From assembly GCF_003019035.1 (NCBI RefSeq), contig NZ_CP027447.1: DNA of 64,000 bases. One strand, written 5' to 3'. The DNA comes from Escherichia coli (lineage in GTDB: Bacteria; Pseudomonadota; Gammaproteobacteria; Enterobacterales; Enterobacteriaceae). Under the pieces are notes generated by a model that saw only the letters and a program-made list of their open reading frames with translations, did no database searches and was not told the DNA's origin. Numbering within the stretch: the stretch's first letter is position 1; every line of letters starts with the position of its first letter. Shown one piece after another: positions 4,315-35,916 of the stretch. The translations under genes and the position numbers were made by a program.

Positions 4315-6725
4315 GTCATGACGATATGAGCAACTCTAGCGGCTTTAACGAGGCCGCTGCATCATTTTCATGGAACGGCCCGAAAAAGGCCATTAACCCT
4401 TATCTGGACCCGGCGGAAGTTGCGCCGGAGTCTGCACTTTCAAACCTGATCACTCTGTATGCTGCCGATAACGAGCAGGAACAACTGCGCCGCGAGGCAC
4501 TGAGTGAGCAGGTCTGGGAGCGTTATTTCTTTAATGAATCCCGTGATCCTGTCCAGCGCGAAATGGAGCAGGATAAGCTCATTAGCCGGGCAAAGCTGGC
4601 GCATGAGCAGCAGCGTTTTAATCCAGACATGGTCATTCTGGCTGACGTCAACGCCCAGCCTTCCCATATCAGCAAGCCGCTGATGCAACGTATTGAATAC
4701 TTCAGCAGCCTGGGCAGGCCAAAGGCTTATTCCCGCTATTTGCGTGAGACGATTAAGCCATGTCTGGAACGACTGGAGCATGTACGCGACAGTCAGCTAT
4801 CCACTTCTTTTCGCTTTATGGCAAGCCATGAAGGGCTGGACGGCCTGCTGATCCTGCCTGAAATGAGTCAGGATCAGGTGAAACGCCTGTCTACCCTTGT
4901 CGCTGCGCATATGAGCATGTGTCTTGATGCCGCTTGTGGTGATTTGTACGCCACCGATGATGTTAAGCCAGAAGAAATCCGCAAGACATGGGAAAAGGTG
5001 GCAGCGGAAACCCTACGTTTGGATGTCATCCCGCCTGCGTTTGAGCAACTCCGTCGGAAAAGAAACCGCCGTAAACCAGTGCCCTATGAACTCATTCCGG
5101 GCTCGCTGGCGCGTATGCTGTGCGCCGACTGGTGGTATCGGAAATTGTGGAAGATGCGTTGCGAATGGCGGGAAGAGCAGTTGCGTGCTGTCTGCCTGGT
5201 CAGCAAAAAAGCATCTCCCTATGTCAGCTATGAAGCTGTGATGCATAAACGTGAGCAGCGCCGTAAGTCGCTGGAGTTTTTCCGTTCTCATGAACTGGTG
5301 AACGAAGACGGAGACGCGCTGGATATGGAAGATGTGGTAAACGCCAGCTGCAGCAACCCGGCGCATCGCCGCAATGAGATGATGGCCTGTGTTAAAGGTC
5401 TGGAGCTTATCGCGGAAATGCGCGGTGACTGCGCCGTTTTCTACACCATTACCTGTCCGTCACGTTTCCATTCCACGCTCAATAACGGCAGACCCAACCC
5501 GACCTGGAAAAACGCGACGGTAAGACAAAGCAGCGATTATCTGGTCGGTATGTTTGCTGCATTTCGTAAGGCGATGCACAAAGCCGGGTTGCGCTGGTAT
5601 GGCGTGCGGGTGGCTGAGCCGCATCACGACGGCACAGTTCACTGGCACCTGTTGTGTTTCATGCGCAAAAAAGACCGCCGCGCCATTACTGCATTGTTGC
5701 GTAAGTTTGCTATCCGTGAAGACCGCGAGGAGCTGGGCAATAACACGGGGCCGCGCTTTAAGTCTGAGTTGATTAACCCGCGCAAAGGTACGCCAACAAG
5801 CTACATCGCGAAATACATCAGTAAGAACATTGACGGGCGTGGTCTGGCTGGCGAGATCAGCAAGGAAACGGGGAAATCCCTGCGTGATAATGCTGAATAC
5901 GTTAATGCCTGGGCGTCTCTGCATCGTGTTCAGCAATTCCGCTTCTTTGGCATTCCGGGGCGTCAGGCTTACCGCGAACTGCGATTGCTGGCTGGTCAGG
6001 CGGCAAGGCAACAGGGGGACAAAAAAGCAGGTGCGCCGGTACTGGATAACCCGCGCCTTGATGCAATCCTGGCTGCTGCTGATGCTGGTTGTTTTGCCAC
6101 CTACATCATGAAGCAGGGCGGCGTACTGGTTCCCCGCAAATATCACCTGATCAGAACCGCTTATGAAATCAACGAAGAGCCGACCGCCTATGGCGATCAC
6201 GGCATTCGTATTTATGGCATCTGGTCACCCATTGCAGAGGGCAAGATCTGCACTCATGCAGTGAAGTGGAAAATGGTTCGTAAGGCCGTTGACGTTCAGG
6301 AGGCGGCAGCCGACCAGGGCGCTTGCGCCCCTTGGACTCGTGGCAATAACTGTCCCCTTGCTGAAAATTTGAACCAACAAGGGAAAGACAAATCAGCTGA
6401 TGGGGACTCCAGAACGGATATTACCCGTATGAATGACAAGGAGTTGCACGATTACCTGCACAGTATGAGCAAAAAAGAGCGCCGGGAACTGGCTGCAAGG
6501 TTACGCCAGGTGAAACCGAAACGGCGTAAAGACTACAAACAGCGAATTACAGACCATCAGCGACAGCAGCTCGTCTATGAACTGAAGTCCAGGGGATTTG
6601 ATGGCAGCGAGAAAGAAGTCGATTTGCTCCTTCGCGGCGGCAGTATTCCGTCAGGAGCAGGCCTGCGTATCTTCTATCGGAACCAACGTCTGAAGGAAGA
6701 TGATAAGTGGCGGAACCTGTATTAA
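4311..6725 (+). CDS. replication initiation endonuclease (P2 gpA / 186 A homolog, rolling-circle type)
   Basis: 804-aa protein with HUH-like motif (VHWHLLCF) and downstream tyrosine region (YIAKYISKN); position after dam as in P2-like phages. Confidence 0.85.
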
Positions 6726-6817
6726 TTACGCGGGTTAACAATTCGTGCTCTTAATAATACCAGGCATATCAGGCCGATGAACGTAAAAAAACGTTTTACA
6801 TCAGTAAGATTATTATA

Positions 6818-6837
6818 TACTGTAAATATAAACAGTG
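6818..6837. promoter_or_regulatory. LexA (SOS) box
   Basis: TACTGTAAATATAAACAGTG matches the LexA consensus TACTGTATATATATACAGTA at 17/20 with intact CTGT-N8-ACAG; ~40 bp upstream of the ORF at 6878. Confidence 0.6.
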
Positions 6838-6877
6838 GTTATGTATACAGTATTGTTTTGGTGTCATAGGAGGAAAG

Positions 6878-7066
6878 ATGCAGGACTATTTTTTGGAGTC
6901 TTTGAAGCTCCAGCGCATTGATTTTTTTCTTAAGCTTGTAGCGGCTAGTGAGTGTAGTGATGAAGAGAAGGGGCTGGCTCTGCAGTGGGTTTCTGAATTG
7001 ACTGATGAACTCATGGCAAAAATCAGAAGCCACGAATACAACCGCTCAATGGATGTCATCAGCTGA
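6878..7066 (+). CDS. small SOS-controlled protein (62 aa), possible Tum-like antirepressor N-terminal module
   Basis: Strong RBS AGGAGG before ATG; immediately downstream of the LexA box; followed after 10 bp by the DinI-like ORF. Confidence 0.4.
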   Translation: MQDYFLESLKLQRIDFFLKLVAASECSDEEKGLALQWVSELTDELMAKIRSHEYNRSMDVIS

Positions 7067-7076
7067 GGTGACTTTT

Positions 7077-7310
7077 ATGCGCATTGAAATAATGATCGAT
7101 AAAGAGCAGAAGATTAGCCAGTCTACCCTGGACGCCCTTGAATCCGAGCTTTACCGCAATCTGCGCCCCCTGTATCCCAAAACGGTAATTCGCATTCGCA
7201 AAGGTAGCTCTAACGGTGTGGAACTAACCGGACTGCAACTGGATGAAGAAAGAAAACAAGTGATGAATATTATGCAGAAGGTGTGGGAGGACGACAGCTG
7301 GCTGCATTAA
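7077..7310 (+). CDS. dinI: DinI-family protein (77 aa)
   Basis: MRIEIMIDKEQ...VWEDDSWLH resembles DinI (MRIEVTIAK...WESADDW) in length and at both ends; LexA box upstream. Confidence 0.75.
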   Translation: MRIEIMIDKEQKISQSTLDALESELYRNLRPLYPKTVIRIRKGSSNGVELTGLQLDEERKQVMNIMQKVWEDDSWLH

Positions 7311-7502
7311 GAAACGTTGCCCCCAGGAGGATTCATTCTGATGGGGGCTAGTTTGGGCAATGAGTGAAATAAGGCGTAAGGTGGGCGGTTATTTTGATAA
7401 GTGATCGTCCGCTTTGTGTCAGAAGCAGAAGTGGGAGTGTCTGAGACTCTCTAAAAGTTGATGATTCACTTACAAAACCATTTTCCTGATGGATGCTTAC
7501 AC

Positions 7503-7838
7503 TTACGAATGATCATTCTGTTTAGTCTTCATGAGAAAATCCCGAATCTTTGCCAAGTTTGAATTTTCGGGGATTGAATCCATGTACGGATCACGCTCAA
7601 ACACTAATTGCTCAGATTCAACGAAAGCCTGCCACTCTACTGGGTCTAGCTCAAATCCCATTGCTGTCATATCACTTTCATCTTCCCCCTCGATCCAGTG
7701 GACTAAATAAAACAATTCATCATCAGGAGAATCATCCTCACCATCAACAATATCAACATCGGTTACAGTGATACGTAGGGTGGGATCGATTTTTGAGACA
7801 TAAATTCCTAACTGTGGTATAGGGGGAATATTGTTCAT
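7503..7838 (-). CDS. strongly acidic hypothetical protein (111 aa)
   Basis: 26 Asp/Glu versus 7 Lys/Arg; strong RBS (AAGGAG) on the minus strand; own transcription unit, convergent with dinI and divergent from the KAP NTPase. Confidence 0.55.
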   Translation of the reverse strand: MNNIPPIPQLGIYVSKIDPTLRITVTDVDIVDGEDDSPDDELFYLVHWIEGEDESDMTAMGFELDPVEWQAFVESEQLVFERDPYMDSIPENSNLAKIRDFLMKTKQNDHS

Positions 7839-8217
7839 GGAAACTCCTTTTATTGGTGTTTGCTATTTGAATAAAAATACGCCAAACAGAGTGTTAACTG
7901 TGAATATGGAAAGAATCGTTGTAAGTACCCCGCTTAGGTGTCCCATTCTATTTTAGAGGTTCTCGTGCATATGGATTATGTTATCTGAAAGTTAACTTCC
8001 GCTTCCCGTTCACAGCGAACATTCATCTTTGTAAACCCGTATGATCCGTTTTTCAAGTGGCCATTCAGATACGGATTTTCACTTCCTTGACAGTGCATGA
8101 CTATGCTGCATGAAATCGCATGATCGATTGAGGATCGTCTTTGCTCAGATCCGCCAGAACTGGCGGGCTTTTGCTCATGTCATGCATGTGCATGAAAACC
8201 ACTGCATAAAGCGGGCA

Positions 8218-8236
8218 GGCGTGGCGGGGATACGAG
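8218..8236. other. candidate cos cohesive-end core (P2/186-like)
   Basis: GGCGTGGCGGGGATACGAG then GCGCGCGCT; resembles the P2/186 cohesive-end sequence as I recall it (GGCG[A/T]GGCGGGGAAAGCA..). Recalled from memory, not verified. Confidence 0.3.
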
Positions 8237-8303
8237 CGCGCGCTTATTACTTTGATAGTACTCGGGTTATAATATGGATGACTATCTATCTCGGAGAATG
8301 TGC

Positions 8304-9956
8304 ATGTCATTGGACTATATTAAAGAACAGTTGTCAGACTTTATTTCATCTGCAGAACCTGAGGTAATGGCTATTCAGGGTGAATGGGGGATTGGGAAAA
8401 CCTATACTTGGAATACTTTCTTAAAGGAAAATAAAAATAAGATTGCATTTAATAGATATAGTTACGTCTCTCTTTTTGGTGTTAATTCATTGGACGCATT
8501 AAAATATTCCATCTTTGAAAATACAATTACAAAAGATTTTATTGGAAATAAACCTAATTTAAAAACAGCAACACAAAATACAAAGGGACTTCTTGAATCC
8601 TGCACTAGAAAGACCGCTCGTTTGTTAAAAGAAACACCTGTTGTGAAAAATTTCGCTACGACACTTGAGTCAATGTCATTTATGTCAATTACTAATGTTA
8701 TTGTAGTCATAGATGACTTAGAAAGACGTGGTAAAAATTTAGAAGTGAAAGATGTCTTAGGGTTGGTTTCTTTATTGAAAGAACAAAAAAATTGTAAGGT
8801 GGTTCTTTTACTTAATAATGGGACAAGTGGTATGGATGATTACTCCACTTATAAAGAAAAGGTTATTGATAGAGAGATTACCTATAACCCTACGCCAGAA
8901 GAATGTGCAGCTATAGCATATAAAAATAATTCTGATGTTCATAAATTATTAAGCAAATACTCCATTTCTCTGGGTATTAAAAATATTCGGATACTGAAAA
9001 AAATAGAGCGGTTTTTGCTAGCCTTGTTACCTGCTATTAACGTTAATTTTGATAAAATTGCAAATGAAGTCGCACGCTCCTTAACTTTGTATTGTTGGAG
9101 TCATTACGCATTTACTCCAGATGGAGATGTACCATCATTGGAATATATTAGAAATATGAGAAATATCTATATGCGTGATGAAAAAGAGGATGGAAAAGGA
9201 AAAAAATGGCTTAATACTTTGCTTATATATGGTTATAAAAAAACAAACGAACTTGATGAAGTCCTTATAGACATGGTTAAGCATGGATATATTGATATGA
9301 ACAATTTTCAAAGGCAAGTAAGTCTAAGAAATGATGAACTTATCCGTGATAGTAAGCGAGGTTCACTGTTTGAAGCATGGAAGCTTTTCTATAATTCATT
9401 TGAAGATAACCGAAATCAGGTTGTTGATAATCTATATCAAGCGGTGGTTGGTGGGATAGAGTATGTAACTCCAAGTGACTTGGATAGTGTTGTCGGACTG
9501 TATAGAGATTTAGATGAAAATATTAAAGCAAGTGAATTAATAAGTAAATTTATTAATTACGGCAATGATGCTCTTAAGGAATATGTCCAATCTATTTACA
9601 TGAATGTTCATCCTATAAAAGATGCTGAGTTAAAGTCAAAAATCCAAGATTATTCTATTACTTTAAATCTGGATGGTTCTATAAAGGATGTTCTAATAAA
9701 ATTATCAAGTCAGAATGGTTGGTCTGATAGGCACGAGGAAATATTGGATGCTGCCTCAGAGGATGACTACTATGATTTATTTAAAAAAGTCATTCTTGAA
9801 GGTGGTGATTCAATAATAGCCACTGCTCTTAAGTTTGGTGGGTATAGCAATGGTTCAGATAGAATGAAACGCATCGGAGAAAAAGCGAGAAATGCTTTGA
9901 TAAGAATTGGAAATGAGTCGAAGATTAATAAAATACGTGTTAGACGGTATTTGTAA
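8304..9956 (+). CDS. KAP-family P-loop NTPase (standalone, ~550 aa)
   Basis: Walker A GEWGIGKT (KAP signature GxWGxGK[ST]) and Walker B VIVVIDDLERR; no obvious transmembrane insert; AT-rich; perfect TATAAT at 8268-8273 upstream. ATG 8304 chosen for RBS spacing; the track ORF begins at 8274. Confidence 0.8.
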   Translation: MSLDYIKEQLSDFISSAEPEVMAIQGEWGIGKTYTWNTFLKENKNKIAFNRYSYVSLFGVNSLDALKYSIFENTITKDFIGNKPNLKTATQNTKGLLESCTRKTARLLKETPVVKNFATTLESMSFMSITNVIVVIDDLERRGKNLEVKDVLGLVSLLKEQKNCKVVLLLNNGTSGMDDYSTYKEKVIDREITYNPTPEECAAIAYKNNSDVHKLLSKYSISLGIKNIRILKKIERFLLALLPAINVNFDKIANEVARSLTLYCWSHYAFTPDGDVPSLEYIRNMRNIYMRDEKEDGKGKKWLNTLLIYGYKKTNELDEVLIDMVKHGYIDMNNFQRQVSLRNDELIRDSKRGSLFEAWKLFYNSFEDNRNQVVDNLYQAVVGGIEYVTPSDLDSVVGLYRDLDENIKASELISKFINYGNDALKEYVQSIYMNVHPIKDAELKSKIQDYSITLNLDGSIKDVLIKLSSQNGWSDRHEEILDAASEDDYYDLFKKVILEGGDSIIATALKFGGYSNGSDRMKRIGEKARNALIRIGNESKINKIRVRRYL

Positions 9957-33995: not shown

Positions 33996-34230
33996 CGCTG
34001 CCGCCATTATGTCGCCATCGTTAAAAAACAGTGCTTCTAATATCATGATTTTAAAAGGCATAAATTTTAGGCAACAAAAAACCCACCAACCTTGAACCGA
34101 AATGGCGGGGTTGATGGGCTCCACAAAATGGGGACATCAAAGAAAAGCAGTGGCACTAATTAAGACTGATGCCCTGCGGAAAAGTTCTGCGGTTGTGCAA
34201 AAAAATTTCATTTTCAGGGCAACTTCAGTT

Positions 34231-35916
34231 TTATCCTAATCCTGGCCATACCATGACGATGATTGTCCCTGCCAGCGTCAGCAGGACGTTGGCGATTGCA
34301 TAGGTGCCCGCATAGCCCAGCGCCGGGATGTTACTGCGAGCTGTATCACTGATGATCTCCATTGCCGGCGCGCAGGTGCGTGCGCCCATCATTGCGCCGA
34401 ACAACAGTGCGCGGTTCATTCGCAATACATAAGCACCGAACAAGAAGCAGATAACCACTGGCACCAGACTGACAATCAATCCGGCAATCAACATTTGACC
34501 GCCAATCGCGCCCAGGCCGTTATTAATACCGCTACCGGCGCTCAGACCAACGCCTGCCATAAACACCATCAAGCCGAACTCTTTCACCATGCTTAATGCA
34601 CCTTGCGGAATGTAACCGAAGGTCGGGTGGTTAGCACGCATAAAGCCCAGCATAATTCCGGCGAATAACAACCCGGCAGCGTTCCCCATGCCGAAACTGA
34701 ATGTGCTGAACTGGAAGGTGATCATCCCGATCATCAGCCCAATAACAAAGAAGGCGCAGAATGCCAGCAAGTCAGTGACCTGGCTGTGAATCGAGATAAA
34801 GCCGATGCGATCGGCGATGGTTTTTACCCGGCGGGCATCGCCGCTGACTTGTAAAACGTCACCTTTGTTAAGCACGACGTTGTCATCAATCGGCATCTCA
34901 ATCTGGCTACGTATGACGCGGTTAAGGAAGCAACCGTGATCGGTCAACTTCAGTTGTGCCAGGCGTTTGCCAACAGCGTTATGGTTTTTAACGACCACTT
35001 CTTCAGTGACGATTCGCATGTCGAGAAGGTCACGATCGAAAACTTCTTTGCCATTACGGAAACTGGGATCGAGTCGGGCGTGGGCGTCGGGATAGCCTAC
35101 CAACGCTATTTCATCGCCCATTTGTAGTACGGCATCACCGTCTGGATTTGCCAGAATCCCGTTACGCCGAATACGTTCAATGTAACAGCCAGTTTGTCGA
35201 TAAATACCCAGTTCACGCAGATTTTTGCCGTCGGTCCAGGCCACCAGCTCCGGGCCGACGCGGTAGGCGCGGATCACCGGCAAATAAACCTTACGGTTGG
35301 CATCTGTGTCCAGGCCACGTTCGCGGGCGATTTGCTGGGCGCTGGTCTGTAAGTCCTGATGCTGCAATTTCGGCAAGTAACGCGCACCAACAATCAAACT
35401 CACCAGACCGATTAAATAGGTTAAGGCATACCCGAGGCTCAGATTATCCAGTGCCAGTGAGAGCTGCCTGCTTTCCATGCCGGAATGACGCAGTGTATCG
35501 CCAGCACCGACCAAAACCGGTGTTGACGTCATAGAGCCTGCTAACATACCGGCCGTCAGGCCAATATCCCAGCCAAACAGCTTACCTAACCCTAAGGCGA
35601 TGACCAGCGCACTGCCAACCATCACCAGTGCTAACATTAGGTAATTTTTCCCATCGCGAAAAAAAATGGAAAAAAAGTTCGGTCCGGCTTCGACCCCGAC
35701 GCAGAAAATAAACAGCATAAAGCCAAGATTAAGCGCGTCGGTGTTAATGCTGAAATGTTGTTGGCCTAATAACAGCGATACGACTAAAACGCCAATGGAA
35801 TTACCCAGTTGGATCGAACCAAGTCGTAATTTCCCGAGACATAGCCCAAGCGCGAGGACCACAAATAATAACAGAATGTAATTCCCATTTAACAATTCGG
35901 CGACGTTTATATTCAC
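34231..35916 (-). CDS. ybjL: putative transporter YbjL (AAE antiporter family)
   Basis: 561-aa membrane protein with two TrkA-C-like soluble domains; position and length as in E. coli K-12. Confidence 0.85.

Follow-up and report, generated by a model that had tools for sequence, protein, structure and literature searches.

Several small acidic proteins act in counter-defence, among them Ocr, Arn, AcrIIA4, and Gp5.9, and the known DNA mimics have mutually unrelated folds; CarS is an acidic DNA mimic with an SH3 fold. The Ocr family (T7 gp0.3) is defined by its sequence and by an all-alpha dimer that mimics bent B-DNA, and the ArdA family by its sequence and an elongated, three-domain acidic dimer. 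Phage P2 carries its lysogenic-conversion genes, tin and old, in the interval that separates orf91 from cosR; both lie on the minus strand, and their promoter is located about 150 bp away from cos. The interval between gpA and gpQ is a published P2 defence hotspot (Rousset et al. 2022, PMC9122126), in whose curation arrangements consisting solely of proteins shorter than 120 aa were dropped.

Here, we describe a strongly acidic protein encoded in this interval in a prophage of Escherichia coli, within a window of 64,000 nucleotides from contig NZ_CP027447.1 (assembly GCF_003019035.1), to which all coordinates given without another identifier refer. The acidic gene takes the same slot as tin and old, which extends from the last replication-side gene to cosR, and has the same leftward orientation. 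Common to both are an upstream region of their own near cos, a GC content below that of the backbone, and a patchy presence in close relatives. In contrast, the acidic protein is without sequence or fold relation to Tin and Old, far smaller, and devoid of an ATPase or nuclease domain. With Ocr and ArdA it shares a small size, solubility, a pI of about 4, and a location on a mobile element near the genome end, but neither has a Pfam match to the acidic protein.

A Conserved Acidic Protein of the DUF8087 Family

The acidic gene (7503..7838, minus strand) starts with ATG and encodes a protein of 111 aa (MNNIPPIPQLGIYVSK...KQNDHS). With 15 Asp and 11 Glu (26 residues) against four Lys and three Arg (seven), its net charge is -19 and its pI 4.05. 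A Shine-Dalgarno sequence, AAGGAG (7844..7849, minus strand), lies 5 nt before the start codon. Both the acidic composition and the ribosome-binding site listed in a preliminary description of this locus are thus confirmed. The net charge per residue (-0.17) falls 7 sd below that of the long ORFs of the window (n=33), and acidity is kept in all 24 DUF8087 members examined, at -0.09 to -0.21 per residue; it is beyond chance. At 40.5% GC, the gene lies below the window as a whole (50%) but above the KAP NTPase gene across cos (32.5%). Homology searches at E<=1e-3 retrieved 61 homologues, and pairwise comparisons with nine homologues gave dN/dS values of 0.10-0.23. Given these homologues and the purifying dN/dS, the acidic ORF is a real, conserved gene under purifying selection.

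The protein is identical, or nearly so, to RefSeq WP_001059831.1, which bears the name "DUF8087 domain-containing protein", and PHROG 17127 ("unknown") covers its residues 1-111 with an E value of 2e-70. PF26332 (DUF8087) is precomputed on 61 of the 61 homologues, one of which is 98% identical to our protein; on the basis of these matches, the RefSeq name, and the PHROG, the acidic protein belongs to DUF8087 over its full length. No match was returned by PADLOC, NCBIfam, or Pfam-A (in a set without the PF26332 model), and none of the libraries searched (PHROG, PADLOC, NCBIfam, and Pfam-A) revealed a catalytic domain. The automatic names of some UniProt relatives raise a relation to DUF1292, which we rejected: none of the family members matches Pfam DUF1292, and the literature on DUF1292 is without function. 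Domain fusions were likewise discarded as a clue to function, the sole long match (P0069, 899 aa) being a repetitive chance match.

Predicted Fold and Comparison with DNA Mimics

The AlphaFold2 model of the acidic protein (mean pLDDT 78.7, pTM 0.64) comprises five strands (residues 11-15, 22-31, 43-50, 61-64, and 78-82) and two helices (66-76 and 94-108); the two stretches richest in acidic residues, 31-41 and 50-57, fall in loops. According to this model, the protein folds into a small SH3/chromo-like barrel with additional helices. SH3/chromo/Tudor-like barrels, including DUF1653 (PDB 3be3), share the layout of four to five short strands that lead into a helix, and CarS was grouped with these barrels as a comparison for the acidic protein. 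The SH3/Tudor/chromo-like matches are weak only, the best one in a profile search of PDB sequences being a chromodomain with an E value of 0.57. A structure search of AFDB50 retrieved only members of the DUF8087 family, and one of BFVD with the acidic protein found nothing significant. The pattern "YLVxW...(acidic)...EW" is similar to that of chromodomains, and one UniProt relative has been automatically named "Chromo domain-containing". Conservation within the family comprises a hydrophobic core and the motif D-x-x-D-M-x-A...E-L-D-P-x-E-W (numbered D56-M-x-A...E63-L-D-P-x-E68-W69), a combination that, as far as sequence conservation can tell, points to a specific surface for binding and not to generic charge.

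The preliminary description had compared the protein to DNA-mimic anti-restriction proteins of the Ocr/ArdA kind and proposed structure prediction as a check. The comparison does not bear out such kinship: Ocr is all-alpha and ArdA has three domains, whereas the acidic protein is predicted to form a beta-barrel plus helices; neither Ocr nor ArdA is among the structural matches, and the protein falls outside both families by sequence as well as by predicted fold. A role in counter-defence through independent mimicry is a separate matter. Here, an acidic DNA or nucleic-acid mimic would safeguard the DNA of the phage or element by blocking a host nuclease (for example type I or type IV restriction, RecBCD, or CRISPR) in the manner of Ocr, ArdA, Arn, or Gp5.9 but without kinship to them. 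The extreme acidity conserved across the family speaks for this possibility, as do the small size and solubility of the protein and its lack of a catalytic domain; moreover, since DNA mimics adopt unrelated folds, the missing fold similarity is compatible with mimicry. We nevertheless regard this role as unlikely, in view of the family membership just discussed and of the genomic distribution and expression context described below.

A Cassette between the DinI-like Gene and cos

The prophage in the window is P2/186-like and of the retron-phage type, with the gene order dam, gpA, a 62-aa ORF, a DinI/Tum-like gene, the acidic gene, the KAP gene, portal Q, and terminase P. The chromosomal flank of its right end holds the RybB sRNA (34073-34151, minus strand; Rfam, 104 bits) and ybjL (34231-35916, minus strand), an integration region that also harbours the P2-like remnant in E. 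coli B and strain PSJ-29. The last backbone gene before the slot is the DinI-like (Tum-type) gene (7077-7310, plus strand). Against related phages whose slot is vacant or holds something else, a cargo segment of 771 bp (7321..8091) is inserted, the backbone stopping at 7308-7320 and restarting at 8092-8095 in comparisons with vB_EcoM-813R9 and Fels-2. The portion of this cassette common to non-P2 islands extends from 7467 to 7959/8001. Beyond the insertion, the cos region (8107..8244) aligns with the circularised P2 cos junction. The equivalent of the P2-type cohesive end, GGCGTGGCGGGGATACGAG, is located at 8218-8236, between the acidic gene and the KAP gene, and the cargo on the KAP side of cos begins at 8244-8255. 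Across approximately 1,350 E. coli records, the DinI-cos slot is variable: it is empty or contains DUF8087, HEPN, DUF4145, CdiI plus an RNase-like gene, ComF, a lipoprotein, or other genes. The acidic gene thus shows the position between the replication-side backbone and cos, and the variability among relatives, of P2-type cos-proximal cargo, and its earlier placement next to cos in a cargo hotspot is upheld, the gpA-gpQ interval being the published one.

Two further observations concern the cos region. Just to the left of the cohesive-end sequence, and still within the conserved cos region, two terminator-like hairpins (8150-8167, plus strand, and 8199-8214, minus strand) stand face to face, possibly shielding each cargo slot from transcription of the other. 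In addition, the conserved stretch 8100-8244, upstream of the KAP gene, came under suspicion as a leftover retron msr/msd, since retron Ec67 is preceded by this flank too; this candidate was dismissed, given that Rfam yields nothing at E<=1 and that the stretch aligns with the P2 cos junction.

The acidic gene is convergent with the dinI-like gene and divergent from the KAP gene, both of which are on the plus strand. A GC-rich hairpin, GCCCCCA...TGGGGGC (7319..7348), separates the two convergent genes and is a candidate bidirectional terminator. On the other side, a conserved leader or promoter region of about 175 nt (7839..8011, minus strand) moves with the acidic gene into unrelated contexts, and is conserved beside the DUF8087 copies of an E. 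coli island, Morganella, Lonsdalea, Serratia, and Symbiopectobacterium; in one lineage (L056/57) it is shortened by a deletion of 29 bp. No convincing sigma-70 promoter was found in the region upstream of the gene, where the best match (TTCACA-19 nt-TATTTT, nine of 12 positions) ends 35 nt before the ATG. The proposal that the gene forms its own transcription unit, opposite to both neighbours, is supported by its geometry, the hairpin, and the travelling leader. We conclude that the interval from the DinI-like gene to cos harbours the acidic gene as an autonomous accessory cassette, or "moron". In one prophage lineage (L052, about 7840-7890), the upstream edge of this cassette carries a tandem hexamer, (GCGGAA)x6, of which approximately 1.5 copies remain in the window at about 7995-8010.

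The place of the gene also bears on counter-defence. A location at the genome end next to cos, together with a leader of its own, would resemble that of first-entering anti-restriction genes. However, the slots in which the family occurs are transcribed from the lysogenic side. Furthermore, anti-defence models of the DefenseFinder type identified only 28 elements with Anti_RM or Anti_CRISPR in P2-like phages, which implies that the common DUF8087 gene is not recognised by those models and counts against an anti-restriction function.

The Acidic Gene Assorts Independently of the KAP NTPase

The cos-to-portal slot of the window is occupied by a gene for a KAP/P-loop NTPase (8274-9956, plus strand), which is a PADLOC candidate (PDC-S49) and belongs to PHROG 4740. 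The preliminary description offered the acidic protein as a partner or antidote of this NTPase, and an immunity protein for it would be a variant of the same idea. The argument in favour is proximity alone, the two genes being about 435 bp apart and divergent. Yet the cos site separates them, and they consequently occupy different slots. In 5,426 complete E. coli genomes, with both counted at >=80% coverage, the acidic-gene segment is present in about 130, nearly always at >=99% identity, and the cos-KAP-portal arrangement in 120. A single genome, that of strain PSJ-29, has both, whereas 119 have the KAP gene without the acidic gene; under independence about 12 joint occurrences would be expected, taking roughly 1,325 P2-carrying genomes as the base. 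The proposed co-occurrence analysis has thus turned against the partnership, with the acidic gene found widely without KAP, and the consistent co-occurrence and adjacency of a two-gene system are not observed.

The cargo across cos is also highly varied. Opposite WP_001059831.1 are retron Ec67, GmrSD, a 416-aa hypothetical protein, or, in E. coli B derivatives, retron Ec86, and, over 26 IMG/VR prophage loci, acidic proteins of 96-100% identity face at least 17 unrelated sets of cos-to-portal cargo, including DprA plus PRTase, AIPR, AAA_13, SIR2, TIR-like, and PIN-like genes. Similarly, Table S5A of Rousset et al. lists WP_001059831 with RVT_1, AAA_15/21, and hypothetical proteins, and KAP arrangements without WP_001059831; the same table places the protein in BL21(DE3) (NC_012892) and REL606 (NC_012967) (PMC9122126). 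DUF8087 relatives, moreover, occur in contexts without any KAP gene. The genome counts and the varied opposite cargo indicate that the two genes assort independently, and the acidic gene is cargo independent of the KAP NTPase and of the other cargo across cos. A function as partner, antidote, or immunity protein of the NTPase is accordingly very improbable.

Distribution and Other Contexts of DUF8087

Close homologues of the acidic protein (111 aa, >=50% identity) are restricted to Enterobacterales, and distant relatives of 70-106 aa keep the core, residues 5-80. Most E. coli copies are solo and 99-100% identical (about 130 genomes and 27 IMG/VR loci). The family has no match in 50,697 GenBank phage records, virulent phages included, and a single one in 72,556 plasmids, NZ_CP019246.1 (3908-4240; H181). 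This is a 45-kb non-mobilisable record from a strain that is also the best chromosomal match, which probably represents the genome of a P2-like phage, either episomal or assembled separately. DUF8087 differs in this distribution from Ocr and ArdA. Its near-absence from plasmids means that conjugative leading regions, the preferred location of ArdA-type genes, lack it, and argues, with its absence from phage records, against counter-defence. So does its retention in decayed prophages (PSJ-29 and E. coli B) and as a chromosomal orphan in Pantoea, at the attachment site of a Klebsiella prophage.

The origin of the cassette is revealed by prophages of a Klebsiella type. In these P2-like elements, the C repressor, a Flk-like tail-anchored protein (FlkN), DUF8087, and the integrase are packed on the same strand, and in divergent members the DUF8087 stop overlaps the int start. 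The synteny of FlkN and DUF8087 holds across 41-100% FlkN identity, although DUF8087 occurs in only five of 80 FlkN loci. The FlkN-int junction is a second variable cargo slot of P2-like prophages, the gap spanning 315-2257 bp (L070-L148, about 4600-6900 in each locus). Its cargo comprises signal-peptide proteins of about 115 aa, BRCT-like proteins of about 290-310 aa, pairs of a Zn-ribbon and a TM coiled-coil protein, and DUF8087. A repressor-integrase hotspot has been noted in P2-related Vibrio phages by Rousset et al. (PMC9122126). We also observed in the Klebsiella-type prophages (L007 113-1135; L016 4908-5990) that the C-terminal ~20 residues of the C repressor (..GQGNRVAGRDYNENKK*) are repeated by the N-terminal ~20 residues of the product of the next gene, the Flk-like tail-anchored protein (..NR.AGRDFNEN..).

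In the window, the decayed 5' end of an integrase gene (MIIRKCKHPSGKWFCK*; 7466..7516, minus strand) overlaps the stop of the acidic gene and is a relic of the repressor-FlkN-DUF8087-integrase order. A longer integrase stump of 71 aa accompanies the Serratia and Lonsdalea copies (L025 3936-4151; L027 8323-8538). The overlap of stump and stop codon indicates that the solo cassette was cut out of a lysogenic operon, and the cassette of the window thus descends from an operon of repressor, Flk-like membrane protein, DUF8087, and integrase.

This ancestry raises the question of whether DUF8087 is the surviving half of a two-gene module, whose effector would be either the tail-anchored Flk-like protein or a 127-aa protein with an N-terminal TM segment (phrog_26730). 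In the window, such an orphan half would be inert or paired with a host counterpart such as chromosomal Flk. In six loci, the gene for the 127-aa protein follows DUF8087 on the same strand at a distance of about 200 bp (L052-L054 8538-8918; L013 6417-6800; L027 8538-8921; L058 538-918). Three of these, L052-L054, represent the same DinI-cos slot, with 96-97% identical DUF8087 proteins. This recurrence supports a module, as does the FlkN-DUF8087 synteny over so wide a range of FlkN identity, and both candidate partners are without known function. On the other hand, neither partner is encoded in the window, DUF8087 accompanies FlkN in a small minority of FlkN loci, many relatives have other neighbours, and most E. 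coli copies are solo, nearly identical, and under purifying selection. We therefore consider a two-gene module quite improbable. As an obligate partner, each candidate was rejected: the Flk-like protein on account of its five shared loci out of 80 and its absence from the window, and the TM protein because it is missing from the window and most copies.

Further relatives lie in islands and small elements. The DUF8087 gene adjoins a gene for a 1,589-aa DEAD helicase in the E. coli island, and in an island of Morganella and Providencia it follows a gene for a helicase-PLD protein. The Morganella island also holds an Antirestrict (KlcA/ArdB) gene, a companionship that favours counter-defence. In Xenorhabdus, DUF8087 is found beside a filamentous prophage. 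Small elements show the order integrase, DUF8087, SRA/HNH, AlpA, and a gpA-like replication protein (L063 1880-3110; L065 1443-2669). Next to these elements, whose SRA/HNH protein is a type IV-like nuclease, come STAND/ATPase or DEAD-helicase genes.

Immunity proteins and H-NS antagonists are also small and acidic, and the protein might be an acidic binder of another sort, either an orphan immunity protein whose target is a basic nuclease toxin of the colicin, CDI, or T6SS type, or a modulator of H-NS or another nucleoid protein of the host, through which the AT-rich cargo would be freed from silencing. Its small acidic character is the usual one for such proteins, CdiI with an RNase-like toxin is among the occupants of the same DinI-cos slot, and the neighbouring cargo is very AT-rich (32.5% GC). 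Against this stand the lack of similarity to immunity or H-NS-antagonist families and the lack of a cognate toxin nearby in any context examined, so that roles of this type are improbable.

A Possible Function in Mobile Element-Cell Conflicts

In the scenario that we put forward, the acidic gene is a self-contained conflict gene, probably expressed in the lysogen from the resident prophage. Its product would be a small, soluble, non-enzymatic protein in which an SH3/chromo-like barrel is combined with two conserved acidic loops and C-terminal helices. In conflicts of mobile elements with the cell, such a protein would probably work stoichiometrically, its acidic face binding and sequestering the basic surface with which another protein contacts nucleic acids. 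Sequestration would be the simplest mechanism for a soluble protein without a catalytic motif whose acidity is conserved. As no clear promoter is apparent, expression in the lysogen is deduced from position alone. Taken together, a lysogen-expressed acidic binding decoy that protects the host or the prophage, by phage exclusion or another benefit to the lysogen, in preference to counter-defence, is the tentative interpretation that we favour, plausible but still short of probable.

The lean toward protection of the resident prophage or host is a weak one. It draws on the fact that both prophage positions, DinI-cos and repressor-int, are read from the lysogenic side. The survival of the gene in decayed prophages and as an orphan, which fits a benefit at the level of the host, points the same way, as does the absence of DUF8087 from virulent phages and, the single record aside, from plasmids. 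Nevertheless, with relatives beside SRA-HNH, PLD-helicase, and DEAD-helicase genes, DUF8087 could equally be an inhibitor or regulator of such enzymes, and a lone acidic protein of 70-111 residues is at least as typical of counter-defence as of defence. A bolder formulation would treat DUF8087 as a new stand-alone family of acidic decoys with a chromo/SH3-like barrel, in which a single protein of 70-111 residues either blocks incoming phage by sequestering a phage DNA-binding protein or disables a nuclease-type immune system; this is possible, if rather on the unlikely side.

Significance for the P2 Hotspot and for E. coli

Neither DUF8087 nor WP_001059831 is mentioned in the main texts of the literature searched, in which the protein appears solely as "hypothetical", in Table S5A of Rousset et al., and the supplements of a 2026 P2/P4 preprint do not contain it. 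The rule on arrangements of proteins below 120 aa left the acidic gene out of the systematic assessment of the hotspot. The gene is therefore a further occupant of the known P2 cos-proximal hotspot, and belongs to an existing, uncharacterised Pfam family.

The wider meaning of these observations is twofold. Firstly, cos splits the P2 gpA-gpQ hotspot into two independently recombining slots, so that genes on opposite sides of cos are not to be read as one system; the KAP case corrects an inference of guilt by adjacency. Secondly, a small gene skipped by hotspot screens is nonetheless carried by approximately 2.4% of the complete E. coli genomes, those of BL21(DE3) and REL606 among them, and its presence in these strains makes its function cheap to test. 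Were the gene product alone to act in defence or counter-defence, the acidic decoy proteins would gain a new fold. Should the decoy interpretation hold true, E. coli B (BL21, REL606) would possess a native factor that has been overlooked beside retron Ec86.
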